This document shows positions 6,391 to 47,700 of a stretch of 64,000 bases of DNA, in pieces. The notes under the pieces were generated by a model. That model was not told the DNA's origin, did not search any database, and saw only the letters and a program-made list of their open reading frames with translations. The translations under genes and the position numbers were made by a program. Each line of letters opens with the position of its first letter. The stretch's first letter is position 1. Source of the stretch: Syntrophales bacterium (GTDB taxonomy: Bacteria > Desulfobacterota > Syntrophia > Syntrophales > UBA2210); assembly GCA_963666365.2 (NCBI GenBank), contig CAXXNF010000001.1, positions 1,120,001-1,184,000 of the forward strand, written 5' to 3'.

Positions 6391-6437
6391 ATTGCAAACT
6401 TTTTGAACATCGAGTGTAGATAAAGGAGATATCGACG

Positions 6438-7995: not shown

Positions 7996-8164
7996 ACAGA
8001 AGCCATTTCCACAGGTATATGACTGTTTCCTGTGACTTCACAAAGCAAAGGGATGCATTCTTCATTGTCCGGCACATGCGTCCGGTGTATCGAAAGCGAT
8101 TTGCGTCAGACGGCAGGATTTGATACAAGGCTGGAATTATAAAAGCAAGGAAGGAACCTCACGA

Positions 8165-25401: not shown

Positions 25402-25454
25402 CCGATTATAGGGGGGCATATGGTCTAAGCATAAGTGGGAACTGGATTCAACCA
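25402..25454 (+). repeat. Left end: target duplication plus two degenerate transposase-binding repeats
   Basis: CCGAT|TATAG. ATGGTCT at offset 14 and CTGGATTCAACCA at offset 36 align with ATGGTTTGTCCCA at the same offsets of the reverse-complemented right end. A further copy, TGGTTTGGCCCA, lies at 25560-25571. Confidence 0.7.
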
Positions 25455-25835
25455 CACTTATTGCAGCTCTATTGCGCGCCCGTACCAAGCATTATAAATT
25501 ATAATCAGTTGGTTAGAAAATAGCGAAGTGGAATTTATTAGCAAGGCGGCTCTTAGGTTTGGTTTGGCCCATTTTTATAAAAATTCCCGTATTTTGATAT
25601 TTTTGTCAAATGGTATGCCATTTCAAATATTTTACCGCAATATTGCAACACAATAAAATCACTTTTAAAATTGACAACACCCCTTCTCTCAACAGGAATT
25701 AAGTGGGAACATGGGTACAATATACTGGGAACACAAACCGGAAACAGAATAAATATATTATAACTTAATGATATTACATCGAATTTATTTAGTTTTATCT
25801 AGGTGACTATAAATTATTCTGGAAACTATATAAAT

Positions 25836-26321
25836 TTACAAGTTGCTGTTCTCAGTACCATCGGTTTTCAAGATTGATGCAACCTCCTTCTGTAATTCAC
25901 CAAGCTGGTTTTCAACACTCTTTATCTGCTTTTTAAGCTCCGCAATTTTAGGACTGTTGTTTTTAATATCTATTTCATAATCACCGAAAATACCCATAAA
26001 ACGTTTTGTACTAAACATTAGAAGGTTTAAATTTTTTATTAGCGAGTCAAGCCTAATGTCTTCCAGGGCGATGTCTAGTATCCCTAATTCTTCAGTGGAG
26101 GTCAACCCGTCACCCATTGGCCCCTCTCCATAACGCAACCACTTTTCACTAAGATCATAGACGTTGCAAATTAACTCAATTAATTTATCCGATGGAAGCA
26201 TGCCACCCGTTTCCACTTTGGAAATAAGAGGCTGATCTACCTTAAGGCTGTTAGCAAACGCTTTTTGCGACACCTTAAGCATACTTCTTAAACTATGTAT
26301 TCTTTTACCAATATCAGACAC
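25836..26321 (-). CDS. XRE/Cro-C1 HTH repressor, divergent from ner
   Basis: IGKRIHSLRSMLKVSQKAFANSLKVDQPLISKVETG...WLRYGEGPM; occupies the position of Mu c. Confidence 0.88.
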   Translation of the reverse strand: MSDIGKRIHSLRSMLKVSQKAFANSLKVDQPLISKVETGGMLPSDKLIELICNVYDLSEKWLRYGEGPMGDGLTSTEELGILDIALEDIRLDSLIKNLNLLMFSTKRFMGIFGDYEIDIKNNSPKIAELKKQIKSVENQLGELQKEVASILKTDGTENSNL

Positions 26322-26340
26322 TTAAAAACCTTCCTTCAAA

Positions 26341-26391
26341 AACCATAACCACCATATTTTATCTTGACATTATGGTAATTATGGGTATAAT
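26341..26391 (+). promoter_or_regulatory. Consensus sigma70 early promoter with operator-like ACCATA/TATGG repeats
   Basis: TTGACA (26364-26369), 16 bp, TATAAT (26386-26391). ACCATA occurs twice upstream and TATGG twice within the spacer. Confidence 0.8.
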
Positions 26392-26401
26392 CATAGTTAC
26401 G

Positions 26402-26749
26402 ATGAAAAAGAAAACAAAAAAACCCTCAAATATTCAATGGGAACTAATTAAAACCTTGCTTTTGGCTCGCGGCTATTCACTTGCCGATCTTGCCCGTCTG
26501 TATGGGGTAAATCCTGCTTGTTTCCGGTATGTAAAAAAAATACCTTACCCCAAAATTGAAAAAATTATAGCCAGTTACCTTGGCGTTAAACCCCAGGACA
26601 TATGGCCTGAACGATACGACGAAAACGGAAAGCCCAACAGAATTAACCAATGGTACTTGAGGGGCTCCCGTAAGGTGCAAGATACCACAATTGCAGAAGA
26701 ACAAAAAAGCAAAAATACCAAAAAGACAACAGAGGCGGACGGGCAATAA
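26402..26749 (+). CDS. ner: Ner-like DNA-binding protein
   Basis: IKTLLLARGYSLADLARLYG...PYPKIEKIIASYLGVKPQDIWPERY is the Ner/Nlp signature. Start moved to 26402 because the 26372 start lies inside the promoter. Confidence 0.88.
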   Translation: MKKKTKKPSNIQWELIKTLLLARGYSLADLARLYGVNPACFRYVKKIPYPKIEKIIASYLGVKPQDIWPERYDENGKPNRINQWYLRGSRKVQDTTIAEEQKSKNTKKTTEADGQ

Positions 26750-26750
26750 T

Positions 26751-28844
26751 ATGCAACAATGTGACTGGTATACCGCGCAAGAGTTAGCCGATATGAATTT
26801 GCCCGGCATTCCCAATACAAAACGAGGTGTTAATAAATTCGCGTCTAAACATGCGTGGCCTTTCAGGAAACGAAAAGGAAAAGGCGGCGGTCGTGAATTT
26901 AACATCCATTCCATCCCCCATGCGGCGTTAACTGCATATATGCAATCAAACTTTCCACTCAATCAAATAACACACGCCCAGGACCGCAATTCCAATGACG
27001 ATATAGATTGCATTGCATATGCTAACGCCCCTGAATACAACAGAAAAATAGCCGACAAATATTTAAAATGGATCAGGCGCTTTGACGGTTTGTGTGGCAC
27101 CGAATTGAAAAGCGCCATCAGGCAAGAACAGAAGCTAAATCCCAATATCGACGTGCCGAGCTATCGTCGCCTTAATGCGTCAAGAAAAATATACGAACGT
27201 GAAGGCGTAGAAGGTCTTCTTGGGAGTTATGGCAATCGGGCGGGCAAAAGCAAGATACGCCCGGAATGGCAAAAGCATTTTAACTCATTGTATTTAACTG
27301 AAAAATTGCTTTCCGTTCGGGCATGTTGGAAAATGACATTAGGGAAATTTTGCAATGATAAAGAAGGGGCATCTTCCTTTCCCTCACCTACGGCCTTCCA
27401 AAGACGGCTTGAACAACAATTCCCGAAGTCTGCGATATATCTACATCGGTATGGCTTTAAAAAATGGAATCGAAAGTTCGGAAATTATATCCCCCGCGAC
27501 ATTTCCGATCTTAAGGCGGGTCAATGCTGGGTAGCAGATCACGCCCAACTTGATATATTTGTCAGGTTGAAAAACGGAAAGGTGGTTGCCCCCTGGGTGA
27601 CTGCCTGGATCGATGCAAAGTCAACAAAAGGATTAAGCGCACTACTTCACCCCGATCCGCCCAATTCTGACCATGTATTTCAAAGCTTTCATCACGCTGC
27701 AATTAAATTCGGTCTGCCTGAGTGTATCTACCTCGACAACGGGAAAGACTACCGATGCAGAGACTTTGCCGGAAAACCCCAAAAACATACAGTCAATATT
27801 GACGAAGCACAAACGACAACGATGATGTCTCTTTTGAATGTTGAGGTAATTTTTGCCATTCCGTACAATGCCCAAGCGAAACCAATAGAACGCACCTTTT
27901 TGAAATTTAAAGAGTCTTTTTCGAAAAACTTTGAGACATATCGGGGGGGTAATGTTATAGAGCGCCCCGAAACCCTCCTTCAAAAAATCAAAAATGGCGA
28001 ATCTGTCTATTTTGAAGAATTTGAACGCTGCTTTAATGAGTATGTCTTTGAAATATATAACAAAACACCGTCACACGGAAGGTATTTGCAGGGACGTTCA
28101 CCAGACGACCAATGGAATAGCGAATCTCCTATAAAACGCATGGTTTCAAAAGAAGCGTTAAAACTATTCTGTATGCGTACCTCAAAGCCTGTTGTTATTG
28201 GTCGTAACGGGATCAATGACGGAGACTTTGGGGTAAGTTATTGGTCTGATTGGATGATACATTATAAGGGCCGCAAGGTTTACGTTCGCAGGGATATTAA
28301 GGACTTTAACGAAGCCTGGGTATTTAGCGCGGAAACGGACGAATATCTTGGCAATGCCTTTCTTGTTGGATTGGTGCCGTTTCTTGCAAAAACTCCGACC
28401 GAGAAAAAAATTCTAAAGGAATTGATGGCTGAAAAGCGCCGTGAGGTTAAGCTGCTCCGCGAGTTAGGAAAATCTGATTACGTTCCTTCCGTTCAGGAAA
28501 GGCTGACTCACCTAAAAAAGGCAACTATGCTTCTTAGCCCTGAACCGGTCCCCGAAGGACAACAAAACGTTGTGTTGCTCGCTAATACTAAGATGGATAA
28601 AGTTGCACTGGCAAAAAAACAACACGCAAAATCATTGGAGATCAAGGAAAAATTTCTTGATAAATTGTACCCGAAAAGCCAGGGCACAGACAATTCTAAT
28701 GTAAAAGTACCCGATATGTTTGATAGATTTGCAATGGAGCCGATGCCTAACGTTACCCGCGACCAGGAAGAGGAAAAGCCGGAATATAATTTTTTTGAGC
28801 TGTTGGGGAAGGTGAATAAACAAAAATCACAAGGCGGCATTTAG
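26751..28844 (+). CDS. MuA-like DDE transposase
   Basis: N-terminal Mu-type DNA-binding domain (WYTAQELA..LPGIP..KRGV...RKRKGKGGGREF). Catalytic core WVADHAQLD...YLDNGKDY...NAQAKPIERTF. Mu-transposase-like C-terminal region. Confidence 0.93.
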   Translation: MQQCDWYTAQELADMNLPGIPNTKRGVNKFASKHAWPFRKRKGKGGGREFNIHSIPHAALTAYMQSNFPLNQITHAQDRNSNDDIDCIAYANAPEYNRKIADKYLKWIRRFDGLCGTELKSAIRQEQKLNPNIDVPSYRRLNASRKIYEREGVEGLLGSYGNRAGKSKIRPEWQKHFNSLYLTEKLLSVRACWKMTLGKFCNDKEGASSFPSPTAFQRRLEQQFPKSAIYLHRYGFKKWNRKFGNYIPRDISDLKAGQCWVADHAQLDIFVRLKNGKVVAPWVTAWIDAKSTKGLSALLHPDPPNSDHVFQSFHHAAIKFGLPECIYLDNGKDYRCRDFAGKPQKHTVNIDEAQTTTMMSLLNVEVIFAIPYNAQAKPIERTFLKFKESFSKNFETYRGGNVIERPETLLQKIKNGESVYFEEFERCFNEYVFEIYNKTPSHGRYLQGRSPDDQWNSESPIKRMVSKEALKLFCMRTSKPVVIGRNGINDGDFGVSYWSDWMIHYKGRKVYVRRDIKDFNEAWVFSAETDEYLGNAFLVGLVPFLAKTPTEKKILKELMAEKRREVKLLRELGKSDYVPSVQERLTHLKKATMLLSPEPVPEGQQNVVLLANTKMDKVALAKKQHAKSLEIKEKFLDKLYPKSQGTDNSNVKVPDMFDRFAMEPMPNVTRDQEEEKPEYNFFELLGKVNKQKSQGGI

Positions 28845-28855
28845 AGGAGGTCAAT

Positions 28856-29830
28856 GTGGCTGCTCAAGCTGTTGCGAAAAAGGAAAATACTCTCCAAGAG
28901 ATACCGGAATATGGTTATTATACAAGACTTTCCAGGCGGTTTAGTTACACAATCAGAAGCCGCAATAACCCTTTTTCGTGGACTAGCCTTGCATTTCTTA
29001 TGAATAGGCCAGCTATGCAAATCAAACAATTTGCAGAGGGCATTTTTGATGATTATCTTTCTCCGATGATTGCCAAAGACGTTGAAGCCTTCCTGGTAAA
29101 ATATGAAACAGAGGAAACCCGCTTTGAGGATGATATATGTCAAACCTCTTTTTACACAGAAATATTTCAAACATGCCAATTTGCACGTGATTCCGTAGAC
29201 ATGGCCATCATTGACGGACAGGCGGGATCGGGAAAATCTGTTGCTTTGAGAGATTTTAAACGGCGTGATCCGCTTGCAATCATGATTACTCTTGACCCAT
29301 TGACAAAAGCACCCTCGACAGTTTTACCGCTTATAGGCAAACAGGTTCCCGTGAACACGTCAGATGCAAATAAATCGCAAATATTACAAAACATTATAGG
29401 GGCGCTTACAAACAGCAAACGCCTATTGATAGTCGATGAAGCGCACTTTTGCTCATGGGAGACATTAGAAACGCTTCGTCGCATTCATGATGCGGCGCAA
29501 GTAGGCGTTATTTTGTGTGGTCAAGAGCGCCTTTATAAGCAAATGAAAGACCCTAAATCAGGGTATCTGTGGGATCAGATCAGCTCACGTATTGGCATAA
29601 GGGCCACCCTTAAAAATATCAGAAGTGAAGATACGGAAATGATATGCCTTCGGTTGTGTCCAGGGCTTGACCCTAAGTGTTTGAAATATTTACATCAAAT
29701 AGCGCAAGATTCGGGCCGGTTCAGACTCGTTGCAAAAATACTCAAAAAAGCAATCAAGTTTGCAGACATTGACAAAGAAGCCGTGTCTTATGAGCTTATT
29801 CAAAGCATTGCGGCACAACATATTCTATAA
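28856..29830 (+). CDS. MuB-like AAA+ transposition ATPase
   Basis: Walker A GQAGSGKS, Walker B LLIVDEAH, LETLRRIHD and QISSRIG; GGAGG RBS; directly follows the transposase. Confidence 0.92.
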   Translation: MAAQAVAKKENTLQEIPEYGYYTRLSRRFSYTIRSRNNPFSWTSLAFLMNRPAMQIKQFAEGIFDDYLSPMIAKDVEAFLVKYETEETRFEDDICQTSFYTEIFQTCQFARDSVDMAIIDGQAGSGKSVALRDFKRRDPLAIMITLDPLTKAPSTVLPLIGKQVPVNTSDANKSQILQNIIGALTNSKRLLIVDEAHFCSWETLETLRRIHDAAQVGVILCGQERLYKQMKDPKSGYLWDQISSRIGIRATLKNIRSEDTEMICLRLCPGLDPKCLKYLHQIAQDSGRFRLVAKILKKAIKFADIDKEAVSYELIQSIAAQHIL

Positions 29831-29846
29831 ACAGAGGGCTTATTTT

Positions 29847-30164
29847 ATGAAAAAAGAATTATCGCCAGAAGCACAGCGGGCTTTACGACGCCTAAAAACG
29901 GATGAAATTGAAGCGATACAAAAAAGCAATCCTTTCCGCAATGAACGAAACGAGGCGATTTATAGCTTAAGAAAACTAGGGCTAAAACATTCCATTCTTT
30001 CAGAGATTACGGGTATTTCCCTTACTCAAATGAAAAAGATTTGTCCAGGAAAACGCCGCGAAGAACAAAAGCAATTAGGGGCATTACAAGCGGGTATAGG
30101 ACCGCTCACCGAGGAAATCATAGCCTTAAGGGAGGCGATAGAAGAGTCGTTAAAGAACCGATGA
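29847..30164 (+). CDS. Small HTH protein, possibly a Mor/C-like activator
   Basis: RNERNEAIYSLRKLGLKHSILSEITGISLTQMKKI looks like an HTH; GAGGG RBS. Confidence 0.55.
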   Translation: MKKELSPEAQRALRRLKTDEIEAIQKSNPFRNERNEAIYSLRKLGLKHSILSEITGISLTQMKKICPGKRREEQKQLGALQAGIGPLTEEIIALREAIEESLKNR

Positions 30165-30292
30165 TCCACTATTCAAACGCGCAAATACATATCAAATTAC
30201 CGACTAACACACTTTAGGCTTGGGTTTTAGTGCCGATTGAAATGATTTTAATTACGTTTCCTTATTGAAAACTAAAACTGAAAGGGAGGTAA

Positions 30293-30802
30293 GTGACTAT
30301 GGGGCATGAATTTTTAAAGACCGAAAAATGTGAGGAAGTACCTTTTGTTTCTGGCAGTTTGATAGACGACCTTGACGCTTGGTCCCGGAAATTGCAGGTA
30401 CTTGGGGGAGCAGTGAGTACAATTGCATGGTATAAGAGCAGAAATGTTGATAGTGATTGCTTTTTTGAGACCCAGGGCGAAACTTTGGGGCAGATTATTG
30501 AAGACTACGCCAAAGCCATAGAATTAACCATAGAGAAAAACGCCGCTATCTTTTCCGACCGAAAAGAAAATATCGATATTTTGATTAAGGGGTGTCAAGA
30601 AACCTATGATATTGTAAGTAAAAACCGTCACATTTCTGATATATGCGCGATAGATCGCCGGGTAGCGGAACTTGATGAATTTTTAAAGGGTGCGCTTGTC
30701 CCGGCAATGCGCTTGAAAAACAACTTTGAAACCCTAAAAAGGGAGATTCTTGCAATCAATAAAAAAGCCCCCGAAGCTGTGGCGGCAGCAGAAGGAGCCT
30801 AG
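30293..30802 (+). CDS. Hypothetical helical protein of the element
   Basis: 169-aa ORF with a strong GGGAGGT RBS; no family recognised. Confidence 0.7.
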   Translation: MTMGHEFLKTEKCEEVPFVSGSLIDDLDAWSRKLQVLGGAVSTIAWYKSRNVDSDCFFETQGETLGQIIEDYAKAIELTIEKNAAIFSDRKENIDILIKGCQETYDIVSKNRHISDICAIDRRVAELDEFLKGALVPAMRLKNNFETLKREILAINKKAPEAVAAAEGA

Positions 30803-30869
30803 GAAAAGGGACTTGAATAATCCCGTAAGCTGAAAATACTTTTAACGTAAAAAGAAAATGAAATCAAAA

Positions 30870-30925
30870 TGTTCCGGCTAGGGTAGCTCCCGAAAAGGCG
30901 GTTTCCTCGCCGCCTTGCCGGAACA
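30870..30925 (+). ncRNA. Putative C4-family (c4-2-like) phage regulatory RNA
   Basis: Closing stem TGTTCCGGC/GCCGGAACA encloses hairpins GGG-TAGCT-CCC and AAGGCGG-TTTCCTCG-CCGCCTT. Partly complementary sites GGGGCAACC and TGAGGGG lie at 30936-30952. The family assignment is from recall of phage motifs, not a search. Confidence 0.55.
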
Positions 30926-31015
30926 AAGAAATAGAGGGGCAACCATGAGGGGGTTGTGCGGATCGTCGTGCAATCCCCTTTTTACATATACAGTTTAGCC
31001 AAGGAGGTTTAGCGC

Positions 31016-31483
31016 GTGGATATAAAAAATAAATATGACGCGGTTATTGGGCGCGAGGGGTTGGAACACCTGAAAGACATTGTTCTTTCAAGAAGTAACG
31101 TTACCCCTGGAAAGATCGACGCAAACCAGAGGCACATAAACCGCCTTTTGGGGATCGGAGATGAAGTATTCCTAAAATACTCACAAGATTGTCAACCGGG
31201 CGCTCTGGCCGCGAAAGCGCAGACACGGGCAGCACTCAACGCCTTTCGGAATGCCGGTGATCTTGTGTTTTCAAAGTATCGAAACAACCCCGAAAAGTGG
31301 CCCGAAATCATTGACGAATGTCAACGAAATATTAACGAATTGATGGGAATCAGCGACGAGAGCTTTGTTGATTATATGTGTAAAAAGGAAGCCCAAGAAA
31401 ATAGCACTATCGATGAAACCCAGCGAAAAATTAATCAAATAATCGGTGTGGATGATGAAACCTTTAAAAAATACAACAAATAA
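31016..31483 (+). CDS. Hypothetical protein with three internal repeats of about 22 aa (IDxxQRxINxLxGIxDExFxxY)
   Basis: IDANQRHINRLLGIGDEVFLKY / IDECQRNINELMGISDESFVDY / IDETQRKINQIIGVDDETFKKY; AAGGAGG RBS. Confidence 0.8.
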   Translation: MDIKNKYDAVIGREGLEHLKDIVLSRSNVTPGKIDANQRHINRLLGIGDEVFLKYSQDCQPGALAAKAQTRAALNAFRNAGDLVFSKYRNNPEKWPEIIDECQRNINELMGISDESFVDYMCKKEAQENSTIDETQRKINQIIGVDDETFKKYNK

Positions 31484-31504
31484 TTTCAAATAGGAGGACA
31501 AAAT

Positions 31505-32272
31505 ATGCTTCCAGCTTTAAGAGGTGAAGAAATTGCCGCTCAGGTTCTGAATGCATCGGGCGGTGGCGGTGCATCCATAAAGAAATATTTTAAACTGGAT
31601 ACTGTCAAATTTTCATGGGTGGATGATTACCTTCGGGACGAAGCCTTAAGGAAGAAAATCCAAGGGTTAAACGACAAAATCAACGAAATGCACAATTCGC
31701 CTATGCATAAAGATGAACTTCGGGCGCTGTTTGAATCTACCATTGACCAAATCAATAACGAACGCCGTTTGTGGTTCGAGGAAAAGCTCAAGGCCGTGCA
31801 GAATAGAAAAGGTAGAATGATATACAGTGACATGTTGATTTACAATGCAAGCCTGTATATTTCTCCCATTGGCCTTTCAAAAGGAGATATTGACCAAATA
31901 TTTGCCAACATTCCTGAAGGCGTCAAACAGGCAGACATTACGACCGCCATCGGAAGAATGCAGGAAGAGGTTGCGGAAATAGAGGCTGTTATTGAAAAAG
32001 AGCTGTCACCCCGGTCACGCTGGCTATACCGTGAGGACGGTGAGCCCTTTCACTACCCCCAGGGTTGCCGCTGGACACAATACGTTAACGCCTGGAAAAA
32101 GATTGCCCAGCGATTTGATGGACCTGTAAGCGCCGAGGGGGTCCCTGTTCAAAATGAACATGAAGAGGCTGCATATTATGCGCTAGGGTTGGATAAAATT
32201 CAAAAATTAGAGCCCCTTAGAAAACCGGGGCAAGTGTTTGGATGGGCAAATAGCCGGGCAAATGACAATTAG
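31505..32272 (+). CDS. Hypothetical coiled-coil protein
   Basis: 255-aa ORF with an AGGAGG RBS, 21 bp after the previous gene. Confidence 0.75.
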   Translation: MLPALRGEEIAAQVLNASGGGGASIKKYFKLDTVKFSWVDDYLRDEALRKKIQGLNDKINEMHNSPMHKDELRALFESTIDQINNERRLWFEEKLKAVQNRKGRMIYSDMLIYNASLYISPIGLSKGDIDQIFANIPEGVKQADITTAIGRMQEEVAEIEAVIEKELSPRSRWLYREDGEPFHYPQGCRWTQYVNAWKKIAQRFDGPVSAEGVPVQNEHEEAAYYALGLDKIQKLEPLRKPGQVFGWANSRANDN

Positions 32273-32277
32273 GGGCT

Positions 32278-32348
32278 GAGGGGTGCCTGTGCTTGACGCC
32301 CACCGGGGGAAAGCCCGACCCCTTAAACACGTCAAGCACCAACCCCTC
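32278..32348. repeat. 71-nt structured repeat, copy 1
   Basis: GAGGGG/CCCCTC and GTGCTTGACG/CGTCAAGCAC stems around a variable core. Confidence 0.8.
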
Positions 32349-32455
32349 TTCTCCTTGATACAGGATGAGGATCATCAATGATTAAAGTCGATTACAAAAA
32401 TAATGGTGTGCAAATCACCTTTATATAAAAAGCGGCGGGGTTTTCGATCAGGCTT

Positions 32456-32526
32456 GAGGGGTGCCTGTGCTTGACGCCCGCCGGGGGGCACTTGGACCCT
32501 TTTTTCACGTCACGCACTAACCCCTC
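32456..32526. repeat. 71-nt structured repeat, copy 2
   Basis: Same length as copy 1, with the first 24 nt identical and differences concentrated in the central loop. Confidence 0.8.
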
Positions 32527-32636
32527 CCTCCCTTCTTTCCTTGAAGGAATATGGTTTACAGTAACACATTGTAATGATAGATAAATAATTCAGTTGTAAA
32601 AAAATACACGCCCGCAAAGAAAGAAGGTGGCGGATT

Positions 32637-32924
32637 ATGAATAAAACACTCTTCAAAGAACGATACGAAGCGCTTTACCCTCTCCCCGATGCGGGCTGGG
32701 ACACAACCTGGGTGGACCGTCTGCGGAGCTGGGATGATTTTGTTGAAAACGGCGCCACTGTTGCCATGCAACTGCGCCGTCTCCAGGCGTGCGCCGGCGC
32801 GTACGAAAAAGATTTTCGCAGCCTGGCGCCTATGCTCCACGATCTCCTTATGGAGGCATTTACCATGACTCCCGAACAGCAGGCCGAGCTCGATGAGTGG
32901 AAGGCGGAACTCGGTTTTATCTAA
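32637..32924 (+). CDS. Hypothetical protein
   Basis: 95-aa ORF, GC-richer than the rest of the element. Confidence 0.55.
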   Translation: MNKTLFKERYEALYPLPDAGWDTTWVDRLRSWDDFVENGATVAMQLRRLQACAGAYEKDFRSLAPMLHDLLMEAFTMTPEQQAELDEWKAELGFI

Positions 32925-33033
32925 TGATCTGTGCATTAATCTTTCTTCTCTTTGAATACACACTAAACGTAGTCAAGGAGAAGAATGATATATAAAATAA
33001 GGCATAACAAAAGATGCGAGAAAGGGCCTAAAC

Positions 33034-33279
33034 ATGAAAGGGAAAAATATCGAAAATAAAGCCCCCGAGATGCGTTTGTGCGCCGAGTGCGGGAAGAAAC
33101 CCACAATAACGGAAAAATCCCCGTATTGTGCATCCTGCATGGCTCGGAGGGCCAACGACAAAAAACGTCTTCAAAAGGCACAGACACGCACAAGCGGTAG
33201 TGATATTAGTATAAACACCAGCCGCCAACCATTAAATATTATCGTTCGCATTGATTTTTCGGTAGTAACCGCTCTATAA
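33034..33279 (+). CDS. Small zinc-finger protein
   Basis: CAEC-x11-CASC. Confidence 0.5.
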   Translation: MKGKNIENKAPEMRLCAECGKKPTITEKSPYCASCMARRANDKKRLQKAQTRTSGSDISINTSRQPLNIIVRIDFSVVTAL

Positions 33280-33355
33280 AATCTCCAAGTACGTGCAAAA
33301 AACTCCGCCTAACCATCCTGAATAAGTCAAAACAATTCTCATAGCGTTTGACGCG

Positions 33356-33409
33356 TTGGGACAAACCATCCGATAAATTGGGACAAACCATCCGGCTAAC
33401 TATACCGAT
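33356..33409 (-). repeat. Right end: two perfect 17-bp repeats, terminus and target duplication
   Basis: TTGGGACAAACCATCCG at 33356-33372 and 33378-33394, then CTATA|CCGAT. A partial third copy, AACCATCC, lies at 33311-33318. Confidence 0.85.
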
Positions 33410-33462
33410 GCCGCGCTAACCGCTTCTTCTCCTTCAGCTTTTCCAAAAAAATGAAAAACTTA

Positions 33463-33517
33463 TTGACTCCCACTACATGTTGTGGTCAAATGCCAGAACA
33501 CCTCCAACATATAGTGT
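33463..33517 (+). promoter_or_regulatory. Tandem NrdR boxes over the nrdJ promoter
   Basis: CCACTACATGTTGTGG (33470-33485) and CTCCAACATATAGTGT (33502-33517) match acaCwAtATaTwGtgt and lie 32 bp apart. A TTGACT -35 box is at 33463. Confidence 0.8.
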
Positions 33518-33563
33518 TTTTTAATTCTGAAGGAATCCAAAACGTACAAGGAGACAGTGCATC

Positions 33564-35877: not shown

Positions 35878-36108
35878 CAGAACTACAAAATACTTGATTC
35901 GTTACATTCCTTCGCGATATATACACCTATTATCAGCGTACACGTTCTCCTGTTCTTGAAGGGCGCTCCATTCTATCATACGTATATGCATAAGCGGACC
36001 TGTTGTTCCTGCTGATCTTCCCGTTTCTTTCGGAAAGCTGTGAAGTAATACAGGCGGTTCGTGGTCCCGATTCACTCAGAACCCATGTGTCGGCGACGGA
36101 GGTGCACC

Positions 36109-39100
36109 ATGACGAATTACTCAGGACATTTTACGATACGCAATGGTTCCTGCGGAAAATCTCTCTATTACAGAGGGATCTTTTTAACACTTATTATTAG
36201 CCTCGTTGTATTTTCCGCACCTTTATGCGCCTGTGCCGACGACCCCTTTGCCCCATGGATCCAGGTGAGCCCCCTGGAATTTTCCGATGTCGCCTATGGC
36301 AATGAAAAATTTCTCCTTGTGGATCGCCACGGGGCGATATTCACGTCACCGGACGGCACGGCGTGGACACGACAGGAGTCGGGAACGTCGAAGGAGCTGC
36401 GCGGCGCCGCCTGCGGCCCCGACCGCATGGTCGCAGTGGGTGCGTCGAAGACCATTCTCCTCTCCTTCGACGGCAGCACCTGGCGCCCCCAGGAACAGAT
36501 TTCCGGAGGACCTGCCTACTTTTCGCTCAATGCAGTCGCCTACGGCAACGGCCTCTTTGTGGCCGTGGGCGAAACGTTGCAATCGGGTGCCGGCGTGGCG
36601 CTCACGTCTCCCGACGGCGAGGCGTGGACATTTTACAGTCCGAATTCTTCCTATCTCCATGATGTGACCTACAGCAGCACCCTGGGTCTGTTTGTCGCCG
36701 TGGGTGATTCGGGGGCGATTGTTTCCTCACCCGACGGAATCACATGGACCCAGAGGAATTCAGGCACTTCTCACACACTGCGGGGCATTGCCGAAGGCAA
36801 CGGAACATTCATTGCTGTGGGCGACGCCGGCACGATACTCGGCGCTCTCGATGGAGGCATTGATCAGTGGCGTCAGAAGACATATTCCTCGTCGTTGCCC
36901 CTTTACTCCGTCACCTACGGGAGCGGTTTCTTTATCGCGGCTGGCTATGACTGGGAATGGAACCGAGGGCTTCTTGTCGCCTCCGCCGACGGGGAAGTAT
37001 GGACGAGAACGGAAACGACGGCCACCGACGGCACGGCGCTTGCGTGCATCACCTATGGAAACGGGCGCTTTGTGGCAGTGGGCGGTGAAGAGGGCAATAT
37101 TCTGGCGTCGGATGACGGCGTCGAATGGTCACGGGCAAAAAAGGGGGTTTCCGGATGGCTTACCTCCATCGTCTGCGGCAATAACGGAACGCTTGCGGCA
37201 GTGGGCTATGAAGGAAAAATTGTGGTGTCTTCGGATGAGCTGACATGGGAGGATCGTGCGTCGGGCACGTCGGAAACACTCCTGGACATCACCTATGGGA
37301 ACGGACGTTTTGTGGCTGTAGGAACCGCGGGCATCATTCTGACCTCTCCCGAGGGAGACCAGTGGACAGTACGGTCGGAGGATGTCTTTTATACGCTCAA
37401 CGGCGTCACCTATGGACAGGATTCCTTTATCGCCGTGGGAAACGGGGGGACCGTCGTTGCCTCCGCCGACGGGAGACTGTGGGAAGAACGAGTTTCCGGC
37501 GTCGATGAGGATCTTCTGGATGTCGTCTTCGGCGGGGGGGTGTATGTGGCGGTCGGCATGCTGGGTGCGATCTATACCTCGCCTGACGGTCGTACCTGGA
37601 CAAAAATCGAATCGGGTATTTCCACAACGCTTCTCAGCATCACACGGGACAGAGGCCTCTTTGTGGCCGTGGGCGACGGGGGCACGATTCTCACCTCTTC
37701 CGACGGCGAATCATGGGATCAACACACATCAGGGTTTACCAGCACCCTTCACGCCGTGACCTCAAGCGGCAACCGCTTTGTGGCGGTCGGCGACGACGGC
37801 GTGATGCTCACCTCGGCCGATGGGGCAGAGTGGACACCGGCAGCGGTTATTACCACCCCGATAGTCATATTTCCCACCGACGAAGACCTGTACGGCATTG
37901 CCCAGAGCGATCACCTGATTGCAGCGGGCCGTTTTGGAACCATTCTGAGGTCTTCACGGATGGGATATTCCATTACGGGAAGCATTCTTGATTCATCCAT
38001 ATTGCCGATCGCAGGGGTGGAGGTCAACCTGTTCGATATGGACGGAAACCGCCGTGCCGGCGCCGTAACCCCCGAATCGGGATACTACCGCATTGCCGGC
38101 GTGCCTGCCGGTGAATATCGGATCACCTTTACCAAGGCAGGATACCGCTTCGATCCTTTCTCAACCGTCGTGACCGTCACGGATGGCAATGTGGAACACC
38201 TCGATATCATGGGCGCTTATCCCTATAAAGGAACCGCCATCTGGCCCACCTTTCGTGGCGAGAACCGCCATAGCGGCGCCAGTCACTATGGCGGCCCGGA
38301 AGGTCTGATCCCCCTGTGGAACAGGGACACGGGACATGACGATGCCTGGCACTCATCCGTCCCCCTTCGATCCTCTCCCGCCATCGACGCGAGAGGAATG
38401 ATATACGTCGGCTCCACCAAGGGAATTCTCTACTGCCTTGATCCTCTGGGAAGGGTGAACTGGCGCTATCCCGCCGATGATGTGGACGGGGGCATCGGCG
38501 CAATCGTCTCTTCTCCTGCAATAGGCACCGACGGCTCCGTGTATGTGGGTTCACAGCGCGGCCTCTACGCCTTCAGGCCTGACGGAACACCAAAATGGTG
38601 TTTCGATCTCGCCCAGGGGGCCATCGATTCACCGCCCGTTATCGGGCCTTCGGGCATCGTCTATGCGGGATCCGTCAACGGCCACCTTTACGCCGTCAAT
38701 TCCACCGGGACATTACGGTGGATGTACCCGGCACAGGGAGAAAGCGGGACCATGGGCGCGATTGCGTCGTCTCCCGCAGTAGGAGACGACGGTACCATCT
38801 ATGTGGGATCACAGGACGGCTTTCTCTATGCCGTTACATCGACAGGTTCACTACGATGGCGTTTTCAGACCGGCGGCGCCGTGGATTCCTCCCCCGCCGT
38901 AGGAAGCGACGGCACGGTCTATGTCGGATCGACCGATTGCAACGTCTATGCGATCAATTGCAGCGATGGATCGCTTAAATGGAAATACGCCACGGGGGGG
39001 GCGATAATCGCCTCCTGTGCCCTGGGCGCGGATGGAACTGTCTATATAGGCTCCAAAGGATTTTATGCACTCGGAACCGATGGCGCGCTTCTCTGGCGGC

Positions 39101-42100
39101 ATGACGGTGAAGGGACAAGCTTCTCTTCCCCCGTTGTGGACGCGGCGGGTATGATCTATGCCTGTGGCGATGACGGTACACTATACGGGTTCAACTCCTC
39201 AGGCGATGTACTCTGGTCGCGGCCGGCGGGGAATTGTGTCGCCGCGTCTCCCGCCATCGGTGCTAACGGCATGATATACACGGTATCGGACGACGGCACG
39301 GTATGTGCCTTCGCACGGAACTACACCGAATCCGATGCCGCCCTCCTTGCAGCCCTGTTCATGAAACATTCGGAAAACAGCGAAGCTGCCCGCCAGTTCC
39401 TTCAGCTTCTTGCCGCCGCCTACGGCTTCGACCGGCTCGCAATCCCTGATGTGTCCACGGAACAGGAAGCATATGTACAGTGGATAGAAGACTTCCGATA
39501 TCATCTGGCATGCCGCCCTGCGCCCGATGGCCTGCAGGTGGTGCTTGAAAGAATTCTTCCTTCCCTGAACACCTATATACAGACGATCACCTCGGCCTAC
39601 GGCGAAGATCTCAGCGGCGGAGGAGAGGGGCCGGAACTGCTGATACAACTCACGGCCGGAACCGACAGAACGCCGACTTCCGTTGAATGGCGACTCTTTG
39701 TAAAGACTCCGACGATTGAAGAGCCGAGCCTCCTTTTTGTGGTCGATCCGGTCATGGGCGGCGTGGAAGGGGATATCGGCGCCCTCTACGGCATCGTCAA
39801 TCTCGTCTCCGTGGGGATGGGATTGTATGAGAAATATTCACAGATTACCCTGTCCCTGGAAAACCGCGACATCAACGGTGTACTCGAATACTCCCTTTCG
39901 CTCGTCGCCGAAGAGGGTACGGAGTTCCTTTCAAGCGCCATCGGCCTGGGAACACTTTTTTCCGATGCCTATATGCATTTTTACCACCGATGGCAGGCGA
40001 TCAAAAATGCCGATCCTTCGCCGGGCACCATCGTGCAGGTGGAGAAACTCAGCGACGACTTTACGGCAACAAACAGATACATCAGCCAGGTGGACGAAGG
40101 AGACCATGTGCTCATCGACGTTTCCAGCGAAGAGGTCAAGATGCTCAAGCTGGATGAAGCCGTCGCCTTCCTCGACTCCCTGGGAGAAGCCTTCGACATG
40201 TTCGGCCTGATCTGCGACAGCATGGACCTGGGAGGACTCATTTACGAGCAGGCAACCGATCCCGAGGTGCCGGTGTTTCTAAACTACAAACTCTGGGCCA
40301 CGTCCCTGCAGGTCGCCGGCGGCGTAGTGGCGCTGGCCGGGGTAACTGCGCCGATCGGTATCGGGCTCGCAGTGCTGGGGACCGGAATCGATTATTTCGG
40401 CGGCAGAATCTACGAAATCCAGGCGGATCGCGCCCAGAAAATCAACTTGCTCAACAACCTTGCCCTTACGATGGAAACGCTGATCAGCCAGCGGAATATC
40501 CTTACATCAATGGATACGGAATGGGCTGACCGTCTTGCCGCGAAGTCGCTTGAAAGCGGCGCAGCCTGCGAGCAACTGCTCAATGCCCTTGCCCCGTCGG
40601 AGACGGACACGACAGCCGCCCGGACACTTAAGGTAGGCGCCTATGCGGAAAGTTTCAAGGAATATCTGGCAGACAGAATCGATTACTACAACTACCTTGA
40701 TCAGAAGGCCGCCAATTTTAAAGGCATCGTCCAGACCGCCGTGGATTTTATAGAACTGGCCATGATCCACGCCCTCGATTACAGCGGCGTCGACAATGAA
40801 GGCGTTCCCTTTACGCTCAGGGCCCACATGTGGGGATTTGAGGTAACTCCTCTCGTAGAGTATCTCGACGATCCCGAGTACATATTTCATGCGCTTCCCC
40901 GGAACGGTACGGTGGGACGCCGTTTTATGGTTGAAGACGGCGTCCTGGTTCACGAATGGTGGGACGAGGGCCCCCTCGAGATATCGGAGGATTCCAACTG
41001 GCTGACTTTTCCTGAGGATTTGGGGCTTGATTCGGACCGGCTTTGGGAGCGGCCCGCCACCGGGAAGAAAGCCTGCCTGAACCGATGGCCCTTCTACCCC
41101 GTTTCCGAGGGAGCGGTATTCGGGGACGATGAGGAGATCATCGTCCCCGTGATCGACCGCACTCCCGGAGGAACAGACTGGGTCGCCTATTACGGCATCA
41201 CGCCCGGCGAGGGAGTGGACCCCTCAAAGGGACAGATTCATCTGGGGGGAGACGCCATGGGTAATTATTTACAAAGTCTCCTCATTGTGAACGATGAGGC
41301 GACGGGCGCCCCTCTGAAGAAATTTCATTACAAATATGTACTGGACAAAGAAACGTCCATCGCGCATGCCTTTGATCTGGATTCGTGGCGCTATTCCGAT
41401 GCCTGGGTGTCCACATTCAACGTCAAGGTTCAGGATGCCCTGGCCGGGATCCAGGCGGTGCAGGCCCACTACGAAAGCATGAAATTCATCCAGACGGCAA
41501 AAAAGGGCTACTACCGCCCCGAGATTCCGTCACTCCCTTATGAAAGAGGCTGGTATACACTGCCCTCGCCGATCACCTGGTTTCAGTGCGACCTGGATCA
41601 TCTGGAGGGAGGACCCACGACGACCGCGCTTGAAGGCTGGCAGGAAGTGTACGGGAGCGGTGTGTCCGTTCCCGTGGATATCCCCTTCGTCCGGACGGTG
41701 TATGTCTATTGGAATGCACGAAACGCCGATCCTTCGGGCGATGTGACGCTTTATTTCGGGGACGGGTCGACCTATACAGTGCATATTGAAAACAACATCA
41801 CCATCCGCCATTACAGCGCCGCCGGTTCATCGGACTGGCTGGGCGAGGGCGCAGGCGGCGGTCTTCCCTATCCGCCGCCGGCGGGCACCCATGCCGAGCC
41901 CTGCCTGATCTATCGCTATTTCGACGAGGGCCTCCCCTACTGGCATCGCATCGACCTTCTCATTATTCATATTCCCGAGGCACAGCAGGGCGGTCAGTTG
42001 AAGCGGATCGATTTCGATCCCGATGTCGGCAGCACTCTTCGTCTTTTCGATATCGCCGTCTATGCGGAAGAAACCGTTCCTGCCCTGTCATCCTATCCAC

Positions 42101-42294
42101 TGGGCGATATAAACGGAGACTGGATCTGTGACCTGGCCGACGCCGTGCAGGCACTGAAACTCTTATCACACACAAAAAGCGGAATAGAACTGTTCGCCTA
42201 TGGCAACTCGGGTGCCGATATAGACGGAGACGGCACGGTCGGATTGCCCGAGGCAACTTTCATTCTTCAATTGGCAGGAGGTATCAGGCCATAG
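36109..42294 (+). CDS. Giant secreted protein (about 2,060 aa): WTxRxSG beta-propeller repeats, carboxypeptidase-regulatory-like domain, PQQ-like propeller, unknown region, dockerin-like C-terminus
   Basis: Signal peptide; many YGNGxFVAVG..GxILxSxDGxxW repeats; SSPAIGxDGTVYVGS repeats; GDINGD...ADIDGDG tail. GGAGG RBS before ATG 36109. Confidence 0.88.
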   Translation: MTNYSGHFTIRNGSCGKSLYYRGIFLTLIISLVVFSAPLCACADDPFAPWIQVSPLEFSDVAYGNEKFLLVDRHGAIFTSPDGTAWTRQESGTSKELRGAACGPDRMVAVGASKTILLSFDGSTWRPQEQISGGPAYFSLNAVAYGNGLFVAVGETLQSGAGVALTSPDGEAWTFYSPNSSYLHDVTYSSTLGLFVAVGDSGAIVSSPDGITWTQRNSGTSHTLRGIAEGNGTFIAVGDAGTILGALDGGIDQWRQKTYSSSLPLYSVTYGSGFFIAAGYDWEWNRGLLVASADGEVWTRTETTATDGTALACITYGNGRFVAVGGEEGNILASDDGVEWSRAKKGVSGWLTSIVCGNNGTLAAVGYEGKIVVSSDELTWEDRASGTSETLLDITYGNGRFVAVGTAGIILTSPEGDQWTVRSEDVFYTLNGVTYGQDSFIAVGNGGTVVASADGRLWEERVSGVDEDLLDVVFGGGVYVAVGMLGAIYTSPDGRTWTKIESGISTTLLSITRDRGLFVAVGDGGTILTSSDGESWDQHTSGFTSTLHAVTSSGNRFVAVGDDGVMLTSADGAEWTPAAVITTPIVIFPTDEDLYGIAQSDHLIAAGRFGTILRSSRMGYSITGSILDSSILPIAGVEVNLFDMDGNRRAGAVTPESGYYRIAGVPAGEYRITFTKAGYRFDPFSTVVTVTDGNVEHLDIMGAYPYKGTAIWPTFRGENRHSGASHYGGPEGLIPLWNRDTGHDDAWHSSVPLRSSPAIDARGMIYVGSTKGILYCLDPLGRVNWRYPADDVDGGIGAIVSSPAIGTDGSVYVGSQRGLYAFRPDGTPKWCFDLAQGAIDSPPVIGPSGIVYAGSVNGHLYAVNSTGTLRWMYPAQGESGTMGAIASSPAVGDDGTIYVGSQDGFLYAVTSTGSLRWRFQTGGAVDSSPAVGSDGTVYVGSTDCNVYAINCSDGSLKWKYATGGAIIASCALGADGTVYIGSKGFYALGTDGALLWRHDGEGTSFSSPVVDAAGMIYACGDDGTLYGFNSSGDVLWSRPAGNCVAASPAIGANGMIYTVSDDGTVCAFARNYTESDAALLAALFMKHSENSEAARQFLQLLAAAYGFDRLAIPDVSTEQEAYVQWIEDFRYHLACRPAPDGLQVVLERILPSLNTYIQTITSAYGEDLSGGGEGPELLIQLTAGTDRTPTSVEWRLFVKTPTIEEPSLLFVVDPVMGGVEGDIGALYGIVNLVSVGMGLYEKYSQITLSLENRDINGVLEYSLSLVAEEGTEFLSSAIGLGTLFSDAYMHFYHRWQAIKNADPSPGTIVQVEKLSDDFTATNRYISQVDEGDHVLIDVSSEEVKMLKLDEAVAFLDSLGEAFDMFGLICDSMDLGGLIYEQATDPEVPVFLNYKLWATSLQVAGGVVALAGVTAPIGIGLAVLGTGIDYFGGRIYEIQADRAQKINLLNNLALTMETLISQRNILTSMDTEWADRLAAKSLESGAACEQLLNALAPSETDTTAARTLKVGAYAESFKEYLADRIDYYNYLDQKAANFKGIVQTAVDFIELAMIHALDYSGVDNEGVPFTLRAHMWGFEVTPLVEYLDDPEYIFHALPRNGTVGRRFMVEDGVLVHEWWDEGPLEISEDSNWLTFPEDLGLDSDRLWERPATGKKACLNRWPFYPVSEGAVFGDDEEIIVPVIDRTPGGTDWVAYYGITPGEGVDPSKGQIHLGGDAMGNYLQSLLIVNDEATGAPLKKFHYKYVLDKETSIAHAFDLDSWRYSDAWVSTFNVKVQDALAGIQAVQAHYESMKFIQTAKKGYYRPEIPSLPYERGWYTLPSPITWFQCDLDHLEGGPTTTALEGWQEVYGSGVSVPVDIPFVRTVYVYWNARNADPSGDVTLYFGDGSTYTVHIENNITIRHYSAAGSSDWLGEGAGGGLPYPPPAGTHAEPCLIYRYFDEGLPYWHRIDLLIIHIPEAQQGGQLKRIDFDPDVGSTLRLFDIAVYAEETVPALSSYPLGDINGDWICDLADAVQALKLLSHTKSGIELFAYGNSGADIDGDGTVGLPEATFILQLAGGIRP

Positions 42295-44733: not shown

Positions 44734-47700
44734 TTATCTCAAGGCGGCAATCTTCTGAAGAATATAGACGATCTCTTCCAATCCCAGGCAGTTGTCATTA
44801 TTTACTGATGCCGTAATGAGAGTCCCTAGTAACGCACTATCCGTACACACCTTTAAAGACAGGACAGCATCTGAAAGATCAACGGCGCCGCTGTTGTCTA
44901 CATCTCCCATAATCACAAAGGTAGCAGTAACTGTCTTGTCCGAATCCATGCATATGCTGCATAATCCCGTTCCCGTGCACCCGTCACCGGACCAGCCTGA
45001 AAAAAACGCATCCATGCCGGTAATTGCCGACAGGGTAACACTCTGACCGGGAGAGTAGGTTTCGCTGCAATCGCTCCCGCCGCCGCAATCTATTTCTCCT
45101 CCCTGACTTAACACGGAACCGCTCCCTTTCCCTGCCACATGAACCGTCAACACCGGTTCGCGAAGCGTAAAGTAGGTCGGCGCGCTCCATGGCGACCACT
45201 GCCCGAAAGAGTCCTGGTACCGTACCGTCCAGCTATAGGTTGCAGGATAGTCGTTGTCGCAGGTCAGGACGCCTTCCGGCACGGTGTAGATCCAGCTGTC
45301 GGTGCCAGAAAGAATTCCCGTGTTGTGCACAATAACCTCCTGGATGGCGCCATCCACTTCCGTAATCAGACGGATGACGAACCAGCTTGCCGCAAGCGCG
45401 TCGCCGTCGGCATCAACAAAAAGGGGGCCCATAAGCTGCGGAGCCGTTGAGAATGCAACCCCTGAAGGACTTCCTCCCGAGGAATCCGGCACTGAGGGCG
45501 CCCTGTTTGCCTCGATAAGGGCGTGTGCCGATGCCCTGTTGCCTGCTCCGTCTCTCACTTCACAGAAAAGCTCATACTGTGATGGAAGGGGAAGTGGCCC
45601 TTCAAGGGACAGCCTGTGTTTACCCGAGGCAATCGTCTGCCATTCCGCCCATGTGCCGTCGGAGAATCGATAGCGCATGGAAAGAGGACCTATCGCGTCG
45701 TAGGCATCCAGATGCATGACAACCTGTGAAGAGGTGGTCACCGGAGCGCCCGCAACGCTTGTGAGATAACAACTGGTAATGACCGGCGCGGTGCGGTCCA
45801 GGATAATCGCCGCCTTGCATGCGGGCGACAGGTTTCCCGCACTGTCTTCAGCAATTCCGTAAAAACGGTAGGTTCCATCAAGGATGACATTGTTTTCACC
45901 GATGACAAAAGGCGGAATGCTGACGGAACAATCGTTCACATAGGATTCCTTGGACATTGCCTCGACAGGATCGAAGACAGTCCCCGTGACCTCCTCGTAC
46001 CATTTAATGCGGGTGATGTCGAAATTATCGGTCACCTCTATATGCAATGTTGCCTCGGGGGTCCGGGTAAAGCCCGAACCGTCTCCTATGGTGAACGCTT
46101 TAATCGCGGGAGGGTAGATATCCTTATCTACGCCGACGGCGACAATGCGCTCATTTCCCGCGCTGTCGACAACCTTTATCTCAAGCGTTCTGCAAGGGGG
46201 AGGGTCTTCGATCTTCAGGGTATCGGAATAGGGAACGTACGGTGACCACTCCCCTCCGGCAACGCGCCAGGAGATCGCCTCCAGCCCCGATTCCCCATCT
46301 GATGCGGACAGGTGCAGATAGAAGGTATGGTTCTTCGCATCGATAGAACCAATGGCAGCCGTGACCGCGGGAACTGTGGCGTCCACACAGATCGCATCGC
46401 AATAGACGCCATTTTTTGCAGTATTCGATGCATTCCGATACTCAACGCAGACCGTATGGACGCCGCTTCCGGTAAAATCAACATACTGCGTTCCCATCGG
46501 GAATAGATAGGATCCCCATTCCTCCGTGTCCAGGACGCCATCCCGGGCAATCCGTATCTCTCCTGTGCTGCTGTCCCATATCTCGAAGGAAAGGGTCGGT
46601 ACCCCCTCTCCGACTACTGTTTCGGGGGTGATTCCCCAGGTGCCGTCCGTATACTCATAGCTCAGGGAGCCATGACCGCCGTATAGTGTGTTGGCGTTAC
46701 CGGCGCTGATTTCGTAATAATTATCGCCATCGCCGGATTCGGCATAGACGAGAAGAGAATAGGTCCCCGTCGCAAGGGCGATGGGGGTCTGCAGAAAGAG
46801 GACATATCTTCCGTTATAGATTCCCATCGAGTGCCTTACTTCGTCGACAGGTGCTGACCAGTGGGCGAGTTCATACTCTTCGCAGGAAGGATCAGCGTCG
46901 TCGCGTTCTGTCACCAGCTTTACGTGGAGGGATCCCGGGGCCCCCACGATATTAAAAATATTGAGTTTGATGACATTGAAGGATAGCGCCTCTGACAGAT
47001 CTATCTCCTGGGCACGGTAGAGGATGCCTTCCGAACCGCCCAGAACCAGGACATCCCCATAGGTATTTTCTACATACCGCAGGTTTCCGTCCGGAGGGGT
47101 AATATGTAGTTCAAGGGGAATCTGCGACGGGCTGTTGACATATGTGGCGCCCCGATTAAGCACAACGGCGCCGGTGGTATCTACCGATATAGAATCGCTT
47201 CCGGTCCCACGGTTGCCGGAAAGATCGGTGACCCTGGCATAGACTGTCTTGGCGCCCATATATACGTCATTTTCCAAGATCTTCCAGGAGGGGATGGTCA
47301 CGAATGTCCCCGTAAAGTATACGGGGTCACTCCAGTCCGCCTGATCGTTTGAAAGCTCGACGGCGAGACGGCCGGTCTCCGAATTATTTACAGTGATCTC
47401 CACATCAACGCGCTTGCATCCGGTGCTTTCTGCAGACCCGCTTGTCGGATCTTTAAGGACCACAGCTATGGAAGGCGCCGTCGTGTCTTTAACAAATTCG
47501 ATGGCTTCACTGGAGGCGACATTTCCTGCCCGGTCCTTCACATCCACCACCAGACTGTAGGCGCCGTCGGCAAGAGCGGCTACATCAGCCACAGCCGCGG
47601 CCATGTCTTCAGAATCGCCATGCTGAAAGGATACCCACGTACCGGATCCGACCTTAGTAATTCCCGAATAGATCCGGTAATTGTAAGATGCGGTAGCCCG

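Follow-up and report, generated by a model that had tools for sequence, protein, structure and literature searches.

Tandem copies of a Mu gpI-type C-terminal tail in a head-less mini-Mu element of a Syntrophales bacterium: a strong candidate for a satellite protein acting on helper head assembly

An intact 8-kb mini-Mu element in the genome of a Syntrophales bacterium encodes a small protein built from tandem copies of a motif that is otherwise found, as a single copy, at the C-terminus of gpI, the protease/scaffold protein of Mu-like phages. In this setting the repeat protein is a strong candidate for a tool by which a satellite disturbs or redirects the way a helper phage assembles its heads. 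Judged from its sequence relationships, it is most likely a multivalent mimic of the C-terminal tail of gpI and of gpZ, which we take to be the C-terminal part of gpI. By analogy with better known satellites, the probability that it acts through the docking site of this tail in head assembly is put at roughly 55%, while a specific effect on capsid size is more doubtful. What the sequences show directly are the repeats themselves, their homology to the gpI tail, the intact mobile element in which they lie, the conserved architecture of related elements and the purifying selection acting on the gene. The analysis covered a stretch of 64,000 nucleotides (the window; contig CAXXNF010000001.1, positions 1,120,001 to 1,184,000 of the forward strand), and coordinates without a locus name refer to this window.

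Gene and repeat structure

The repeat gene is an open reading frame of 155 amino acids (31016-31483, + strand), with a GTG start 8-9 nucleotides 3' of an AGGAGG sequence. Its parts are as follows.

31016..31483, + strand: repeat protein, 155 amino acids, with a conserved N-terminal segment of about 30 amino acids followed by tail-like repeats (open reading frame and family alignment)
31112..31180, + strand: repeat 1, amino acids 33-55 (motif IDxxQRxINxLxGIxDExFxxY)
31211..31279, + strand: degenerate repeat, amino acids 66-88, kept across the family (12-member family alignment)
31307..31375, + strand: repeat 2, amino acids 98-120 (same motif)
31406..31474, + strand: repeat 3, amino acids 131-153, the stretch matching the end of the Pfam profile PF10123 (same motif and Pfam)

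A sequence-only reading of this DNA had described three copies of the motif, the last of them at the extreme C-terminus, and both observations hold. The three clear repeats are 23 residues long and share 12-13 of 23 residues in pairwise comparisons, and repeat 3 ends two residues before the C-terminus of the protein. The best match of a 23-mer of the protein to another part of itself scores 69 with BLOSUM62, a value reached by none of 1000 shuffled versions (mean 18.4, SD 4.9, maximum 43). The degenerate fourth copy has 4-7 of 23 residues in common with the other repeats. An AlphaFold model of the whole protein is of low confidence (pLDDT 56.6), with a helix-turn-helix for each repeat and no stable fold, and the repeats are predicted to sit on short flexible linkers of one chain.

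Searches by other routes gave few leads. PADLOC returned no defence family match for the repeat protein, the ESM Atlas held no usable match for it or for the product of the adjoining gene, orf255, and tblastn with the repeat protein gave 0 matches in 50,697 phage records. A search aimed at longer proteins also came back empty. Neither protein was found in IMG/VR viral contigs, and these contigs therefore give no sign of packaging.

Homology to the C-terminal tail of gpI

The profile of the Mu-like prophage I protein (PF10123) matches amino acids 124-152 of the repeat protein with its own last positions, 302-330 of 330 (E 0.011), at a score of 15.8 bits that lies below the family cut-off of 25.2. 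In Pfam and PHROG searches the 155-residue protein has no N-terminal head-maturation protease domain, in agreement with the earlier proposal of a coat-binding protein without a protease domain, and the gpI-type tail motif is present at its extreme C-terminus. A likeness to the C-termini of Mu-type I/Z proteins had been put forward in the sequence-only reading; the match to the end of PF10123, together with profile searches using the repeats themselves, shows this likeness to be real and specific.

The first repeat HMM was built from 36 repeat units of 12 stand-alone proteins only, and was run against 11,165 stop-to-stop frames of at least 50 amino acids from 79 Mu-like loci of IMG/VR with gpI-like proteins, which had been fetched using the related protein P0013 as bait. 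At a domain E below 0.01 it matched 49 frames, a count that overstates independence given that many of the 79 viral loci are near-duplicates, and every match lies 2-9 residues from the C-terminus of a gpI-like frame. The matched frame is the bait-matched gpI frame in 48 of the 49, the exception being a second gpI-like frame in L051. Three further gpI C-termini follow at E 0.48, no other frame falls below E 1, and each gpI frame has one significant domain at most. The positional specificity of the first HMM for gpI C-termini is complete among the 79 loci. By eye as well, many of the gpI-like proteins in these loci end with a single copy of the motif, often in ...FKKYNK like the window protein. 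The viral contig L051 carries two gpI-like genes (5299-6579 and 7196-8227), with the tail motif on the second only.

The identity of the matched genes is clear where their surroundings are informative. In L026, L036 and L044 they are end-to-end members of PF10123 (E about 1e-80); gpI in L026 lies between the Mu portal, F and G genes on one side and gpT on the other, and in L036 and L044 gpT lies 3' of gpI. Relatives of the repeat protein in L006, L101, L103 and L105 combine one repeat of this first class with two that form a second class. The 8 units of that second class were made into an HMM, which at E < 0.001 matched a further 14 gpI C-termini, all of them missed by the first HMM, and the two HMMs together match gpI C-termini in 63 of the 79 loci. 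Among the remaining 16, some have class-like tails below significance, five have another kind of C-terminus and two are truncated. The classes of repeat thus track the classes of gpI tail. Within the order to which the host belongs, gpI was found in 10 of 201 genomes sampled, and six of the ten gpI C-termini match the first HMM (E < 0.001).

A search of phage proteins with a repeat HMM had been proposed at the outset, and such HMMs matched nothing but gpI C-termini (49 + 14 of 79 loci). The repeat might instead have belonged to an unrelated family, for example a DNA-binding repeat; no DNA-binding or other family matched the repeat protein significantly in Pfam, PHROG, PADLOC or the PDB, where the best match was AcaB (E 0.007, with a per-domain E above 1). 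Among solved structures, none contains a relative of gpI or of the repeat, and the literature search returned no paper on what the gpI/gpZ tail binds. A complex prediction of gpT (L036 type, 28-row alignment) with the repeat protein, run without controls, gave scores of 0.26 and 0.04, which count neither for nor against binding.

Relatives of the repeat protein

A word-indexed search of 5.8 billion proteins yielded 16 further clusters besides the protein of the window. Eleven of these (P0002-P0012) are stand-alone proteins of 123-215 amino acids with three to five repeats, and they also have a conserved segment between the repeats and a conserved N-terminal segment. Others are longer: P0013 (251 amino acids) and P0014 (242 amino acids) have an N-terminal domain followed by three repeats, and P0018 (243 amino acids), from a later search, joins an N-terminal domain to a C-terminal half that closely matches that of the stand-alone P0003. 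The N-terminal domain of P0013 and P0018 is a head-maturation protease (phrog_328, about 1e-42), and in the fusion forms P0013, P0014 and P0018 a head-maturation-protease domain is directly joined to two or three repeats. These three and P0157 can be regarded as short gpI forms, with a protease domain and two or three tails and without the long scaffold part.

Repeat number differs among the relatives by recent tandem duplication, with key residues invariant; the protein of L004, for instance, has three near-identical units. The last repeat lies at or near the C-terminus in all full-length members looked at. A profile search of 1.84 billion proteins, with 275 positions that included the protease columns, gave 5,140 matches, mostly gpI proteases, and among the 150 matches listed there are 14 proteins of 58-215 amino acids that match the repeat part only. 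The loci L007 and L106-L109, which had been picked up as relatives by pattern scans, are false positives: their proteins are unrelated and have one short word in common with repeat 1 (AINRLLGIGDD), and they are left out of all counts.

A mini-Mu element without head genes

The repeat gene lies within an element of 7,998 bp with the following features.

25407..33404, + strand: whole mini-Mu element, 7,998 bp, termini TATAG...CTATA (comparison with related elements)
25402..25406, no strand: left copy of the 5-bp target-site duplication CCGAT (perfect duplication)
33405..33409, no strand: right copy of the 5-bp target-site duplication CCGAT (perfect duplication)
33356..33394, + strand: two identical 17-nt direct repeats by the right end, probable transposase-binding sites (sequence)
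25836..26321, - strand: c-like HTH repressor (HTH_19, HTH_3)
26372..26749, + strand: Ner-like winged HTH protein (HTH_35, 1.7e-16)
26691..28844, + strand: MuA-type transposase (HTH_Tnp_Mu_1, DDE_2, Mu-transpos_C; phrog_310, 6e-100)
28856..29830, + strand: MuB-type AAA+ target-capture protein (AAA_22, Phage-MuB_C; phrog_296, 1.5e-51)
29730..30164, + strand: orf144, small HTH-like protein kept in relatives, true start probably an internal ATG (open reading frame, relatives)
30293..30802, + strand: orf169, upstream protein conserved in some relatives (comparison with relatives)
30871..30938, + strand: int-alpA RNA motif (Rfam RF02996; 49.1 bits against a gathering threshold of 35.8)
31505..32272, + strand: orf255, conserved partner gene directly 3' of the repeat gene (helical hairpin and small domain)
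33034..33279, + strand: third conserved gene, a remnant of 81 amino acids with the central zinc ribbon only (165-268 amino acids in relatives)

The element stands out as a low-GC island, with about 42% GC (32-44%) against 52-59% in the flanks. An inverted-repeat search alone did not locate its ends; they were found by comparison with relatives, in which two subterminal direct repeats are followed by 12-14 nucleotides up to the terminus. A site related to the 17-nt repeats of the right end, in inverted orientation, lies near 25560. With a MuA-type DDE transposase, a MuB-type AAA+ protein, inverted termini, subterminal repeats and a 5-bp duplication, the element is of Mu type. In a genome of the same genus (G204) the same flanks lie about 150 bp apart, compared with 8,088 bp in the window, and the element is absent from the site; the intergenic part of this empty site is too diverged in the alignment to place the junction.

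Pfam and PHROG profile searches found no head or tail families in the window element. The repeat gene lies on its early side, 3' of MuB, and the element has no recognisable late module. As expected of a satellite, both the window element and the relatives examined are mobile elements without virion structural genes. The genome of the bacterium itself lacks gpT, gpI and a further MuA, and PF10123 was found in none of the four other carrier genomes, which are incomplete metagenome-assembled genomes. As none of the five carrier genomes has PF10123, a helper would therefore come from outside. These absences also bear on whether the repeat protein, made as it is of scaffold tails, could be a true scaffold for a capsid or capsid-like shell belonging to the element or the genome. 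Such a role is extremely unlikely in a genome without gpT and in an element family for which no head genes were found in or beside the members examined, and the product of orf255 is predicted to be mainly helical, not of HK97 type, and has no fold match.

Downstream of orf255 the window copy differs from its relatives. The third conserved gene, which in relatives encodes 165-268 amino acids with two zinc ribbons and a C-terminal helical domain, is cut to 81 amino acids, and the window copy may accordingly be partly decayed. Between orf255 and this remnant lie two 72-nt direct repeats (32277-32348 and 32455-32526), 82% identical and each with internal dyad symmetry, accompanied by a GC-richer ORF of 95 codons (32637-32924) that has no counterpart in related elements; together they look like a secondary insertion. 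Outside the element, two long ORFs of 2077 and 1727 amino acids (36061-42294 and 44734-49917) with beta-propeller, Ig-like and carboxypeptidase-regulatory domains are probably surface proteins, unrelated to the repeat protein.

Related elements and their mobility

In at least 15 other loci the genes are arranged as (c)-(ner)-MuA-MuB-(GemA or small genes)-(orf169)-repeat gene-orf255-zinc-ribbon gene; these are the genome loci L003-L006 and at least 11 metagenome loci (L088-L094, L100, L101, L103 and L105, with L100 identical to part of L006), while shorter contigs show the repeat-orf255(-Zn) part only. Several of these elements can be followed into host DNA. The L006 element has a 5-bp duplication, ATTTC, on both sides, and is flanked by an EamA gene on one side and by an unassigned 456-amino-acid ORF and then RecG on the other. 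The element of L101 is followed by the ilv/leu operon and that of L004 by CysS and GlmS, and the L088 element is preceded by ParB and RNR. Neither in nor beside the related elements examined were head or tail families found. A 99%-identical element occurs on three contigs with the same ...CA terminus and three different right flanks (L089:5619, L090:6656, L091:2210), which indicates recent transposition.

Some insertion sites recur. The window element (33405-33563), L088 (about 4320-4461) and L093 (8539-8679) all lie just upstream of a class II ribonucleotide reductase gene, with L088 and L093 within a few nucleotides of the same host position and in opposite orientation. In the same way, the elements of L006 and L105 occupy the same site adjoining the EamA gene in opposite orientation. 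This pattern hints at a possible preference for certain targets, something out of the ordinary for Mu-type transposition.

In two pairs of relatives the dN/dS of the repeat gene is 0.17 (L088 and L092) and 0.39 (L006 and L105), and for this reason the gene is considered to be maintained; it is under purifying selection in these relatives. In the first of the pairs the repeat genes are close (pN 0.15) and the adjoining orf255 genes distant (pN 0.43), a contrast that points to module shuffling between elements.

Selection and mobility are also what decides whether the repeat gene might be a relic, a non-functional remnant of gpI left after a Mu-like prophage lost its late genes. The tail is the sole recognisable motif that the protein has in common with gpI, and the third conserved gene is truncated in the window element, as decay would have it. 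This explanation is nevertheless largely refuted and very improbable, as the ends of the element are intact with a target duplication, the compact architecture is found in many loci with host flanks, dN/dS lies at 0.17-0.39, repeat number varies by tandem duplication around invariant key residues, and at least 16 sequence clusters exist besides the window's protein.

A conserved neighbour of the repeat gene is orf255, which lies directly 3' of it in 18 of the 19 loci with downstream DNA present, L102 being the exception. The orf255 family is a tight one of 57 clusters, all of 173-259 amino acids, and the three clusters with a source name come from Deltaproteobacteria, Desulfatiglandales and Syntrophales metagenome-assembled genomes. 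Its predicted structure (pLDDT 84.9) is a long helical hairpin with a small domain. No PDB entry matches this model at E <= 0.001, and its best viral match is one uncharacterised Caudovirales protein (E 1.2e-3).

The constancy of this pairing would suit a cargo adaptor, whose tails would load the protein and a putative N-terminal cargo, such as the product of orf255, into helper procapsids to travel with the DNA, much as targeting peptides do for capsid-like shells. Terminal tails on a chain predicted to be flexible, and a conserved N-terminal segment set apart from the repeats, would likewise be in keeping with this role. Loading, on the other hand, needs no more than one tail, and a cargo adaptor is considered improbable.

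RNA leader

An int-alpA RNA motif ends 78 nucleotides upstream of the repeat gene and is the sole above-threshold copy in the genome. The motif is named for its place between the int and alpA genes of prophage-like islands. It lies just 5' of the repeat gene in 10 of 14 related loci scanned, and was absent from the 14 Mu-like viral head regions scanned. From this placement it is the probable leader or regulatory RNA of the repeat-orf255 operon. The presence of the leader accounts for the upstream extension, by several gene callers, of relatives into a common 'MRDN...' frame. A look-up of sequencing runs listed those of the source sample and no RNA data set. The protease-repeat fusion P0018 lies behind the same leader, and some mini-Mu elements may thus carry a tail-targeted protease that shares the RNA leader of the stand-alone gene.

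That the repeat gene has a leader of its own is one of several features that would also suit the main rival explanation, in which the protein has a different partner and serves the element's own cycle (transposition, repression or host takeover), its likeness to the tail reflecting shared ancestry of a small helix-turn-helix peptide and not shared docking. The gene lies 3' of MuB, of GemA-like genes and of others of early type, and 0 of 5 carrier genomes yielded helper head genes. The family also has a conserved N-terminal segment and, in orf255, a conserved partner gene whose product is without a fold match. Against this stand the correspondence between repeat classes and gpI tail classes, the constant position of the last repeat at the extreme C-terminus as in gpI, and the occurrence of direct protease-repeat fusions; nor did any DNA-binding or transposition family match, the best PDB match being AcaB, as described above. 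Taken together, a different partner appears unlikely.

Proposed function

The preferred reading remains that of a tail mimic acting in head assembly. The protein has three good tails and one degenerate tail, and has neither a protease domain nor a scaffold coiled coil. In a cell where a Mu-like phage is assembling its heads, the repeats would occupy docking sites meant for gpI and gpZ; by analogy, these sites are most likely located on the inward-facing side of gpT, the major head protein. Tails set close together along a single chain would provide avidity and could out-compete the single-tail proteins of the helper, and one multi-tail chain could tie neighbouring subunits together. Scaffold and protease would be displaced from entry, and the helper would then form either small heads of a size to fit an 8-kb element or heads that lack protease and scaffold and fail. 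The partner for docking, its binding and the consequence for helper heads are all inferred here from analogous systems.

Helper packaging of a mini-Mu by headful carries adjacent host DNA. The small-head outcome would be consistent with the packaging of laboratory mini-Mus by helper Mu, as described in an excerpted source (PMC3145075). A specific redirection of capsid size is nonetheless a doubtful part of the proposal.

A broader and tentative view sees in the 8-kb elements the first satellites of transposable (Mu-like) phages to be met in nature. Such elements would use their own MuA and MuB for replication and integration and would be packaged by an incoming Mu-like helper, with the poly-tail mimic, under an int-alpA-type leader, re-sizing or sabotaging helper heads and the different repeat classes widening the range of helpers.

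Comparison with known systems and significance

The closest homologue is gpI/gpZ of Mu itself (PF10123), to whose last ~23 residues in gpI the repeat unit is homologous, and for which fusions of protease and repeats occur naturally. Unlike gpI and gpZ, the window protein has neither the protease domain nor the central helical scaffold part, and it carries three to four tails where gpI carries one. The genes also differ in setting, as the repeat gene lies in a head-less mini-Mu and gpI in the head module.

The closest functional parallel comes from satellites of other phages. In P22 and phi29 the scaffold binds the coat through a helix-loop-helix or helix-and-hook at its C-terminus (PMC3185693), and the statement in the sequence-only reading that scaffold C-termini bind coat in phages such as P22 agrees with this source. 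In 80alpha, too, the C-terminal end of the scaffold is the coat-binding element, and CpmB of SaPI1 has a C-terminal motif in common with this scaffold, competes for the same site on the capsid protein and causes the capsid to shrink (PMC5644958). CpmB is a small helical satellite protein whose C-terminus copies the coat-binding end of the helper's scaffold, and the same logic is proposed for the repeat protein. The latter has a C-terminus homologous to the gpI tails of Mu-like phages, its putative helpers. No sequence relation between the two proteins was seen. Each chain of the CpmB dimer bears a single tail, and in the window protein the tails follow one another along the same chain. The two systems also differ in host and in the family of the helper, the window element is a transposon and not an integrase island, and the function that has been demonstrated for CpmB is proposed by analogy for the window protein.

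Other satellites reach a similar end by different means. P4 Sid and PLE TcaP redirect the capsid size of their helpers, according to the excerpts available (PMC7552001, PMC10945586); in these accounts they form external cages and, unlike the repeat protein, do not mimic the internal scaffold tail of the helper. Laboratory mini-Mu constructs consist of the Mu ends with A and B and are packaged by helper Mu, as the excerpted source states (PMC3145075). The window-type elements, by comparison, occur naturally and are conserved, and besides c and ner they have a conserved module of three genes behind an RNA leader. Searches of the open-access literature turned up no account of Mu-like satellites in nature and none of the repeat-protein family.

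The logic of CpmB is already known; what is new is the type of element, together with the tandem, multivalent design and the RNA leader. To our knowledge, capsid piracy by scaffold mimicry is limited to a few satellites, all of integrase or plasmid type. If the present proposal is true, the docking peptide of Mu-like protease/scaffold proteins would have been identified, and with it a simple and portable peptide tag by which proteins could be directed into Mu-like procapsids. The same logic of piracy would then operate in a Mu-type transposon of anaerobic Desulfobacterota-like bacteria, in the form of several copies of the helper's tail on one chain, and the elements that carry it would constitute a new class of satellite.
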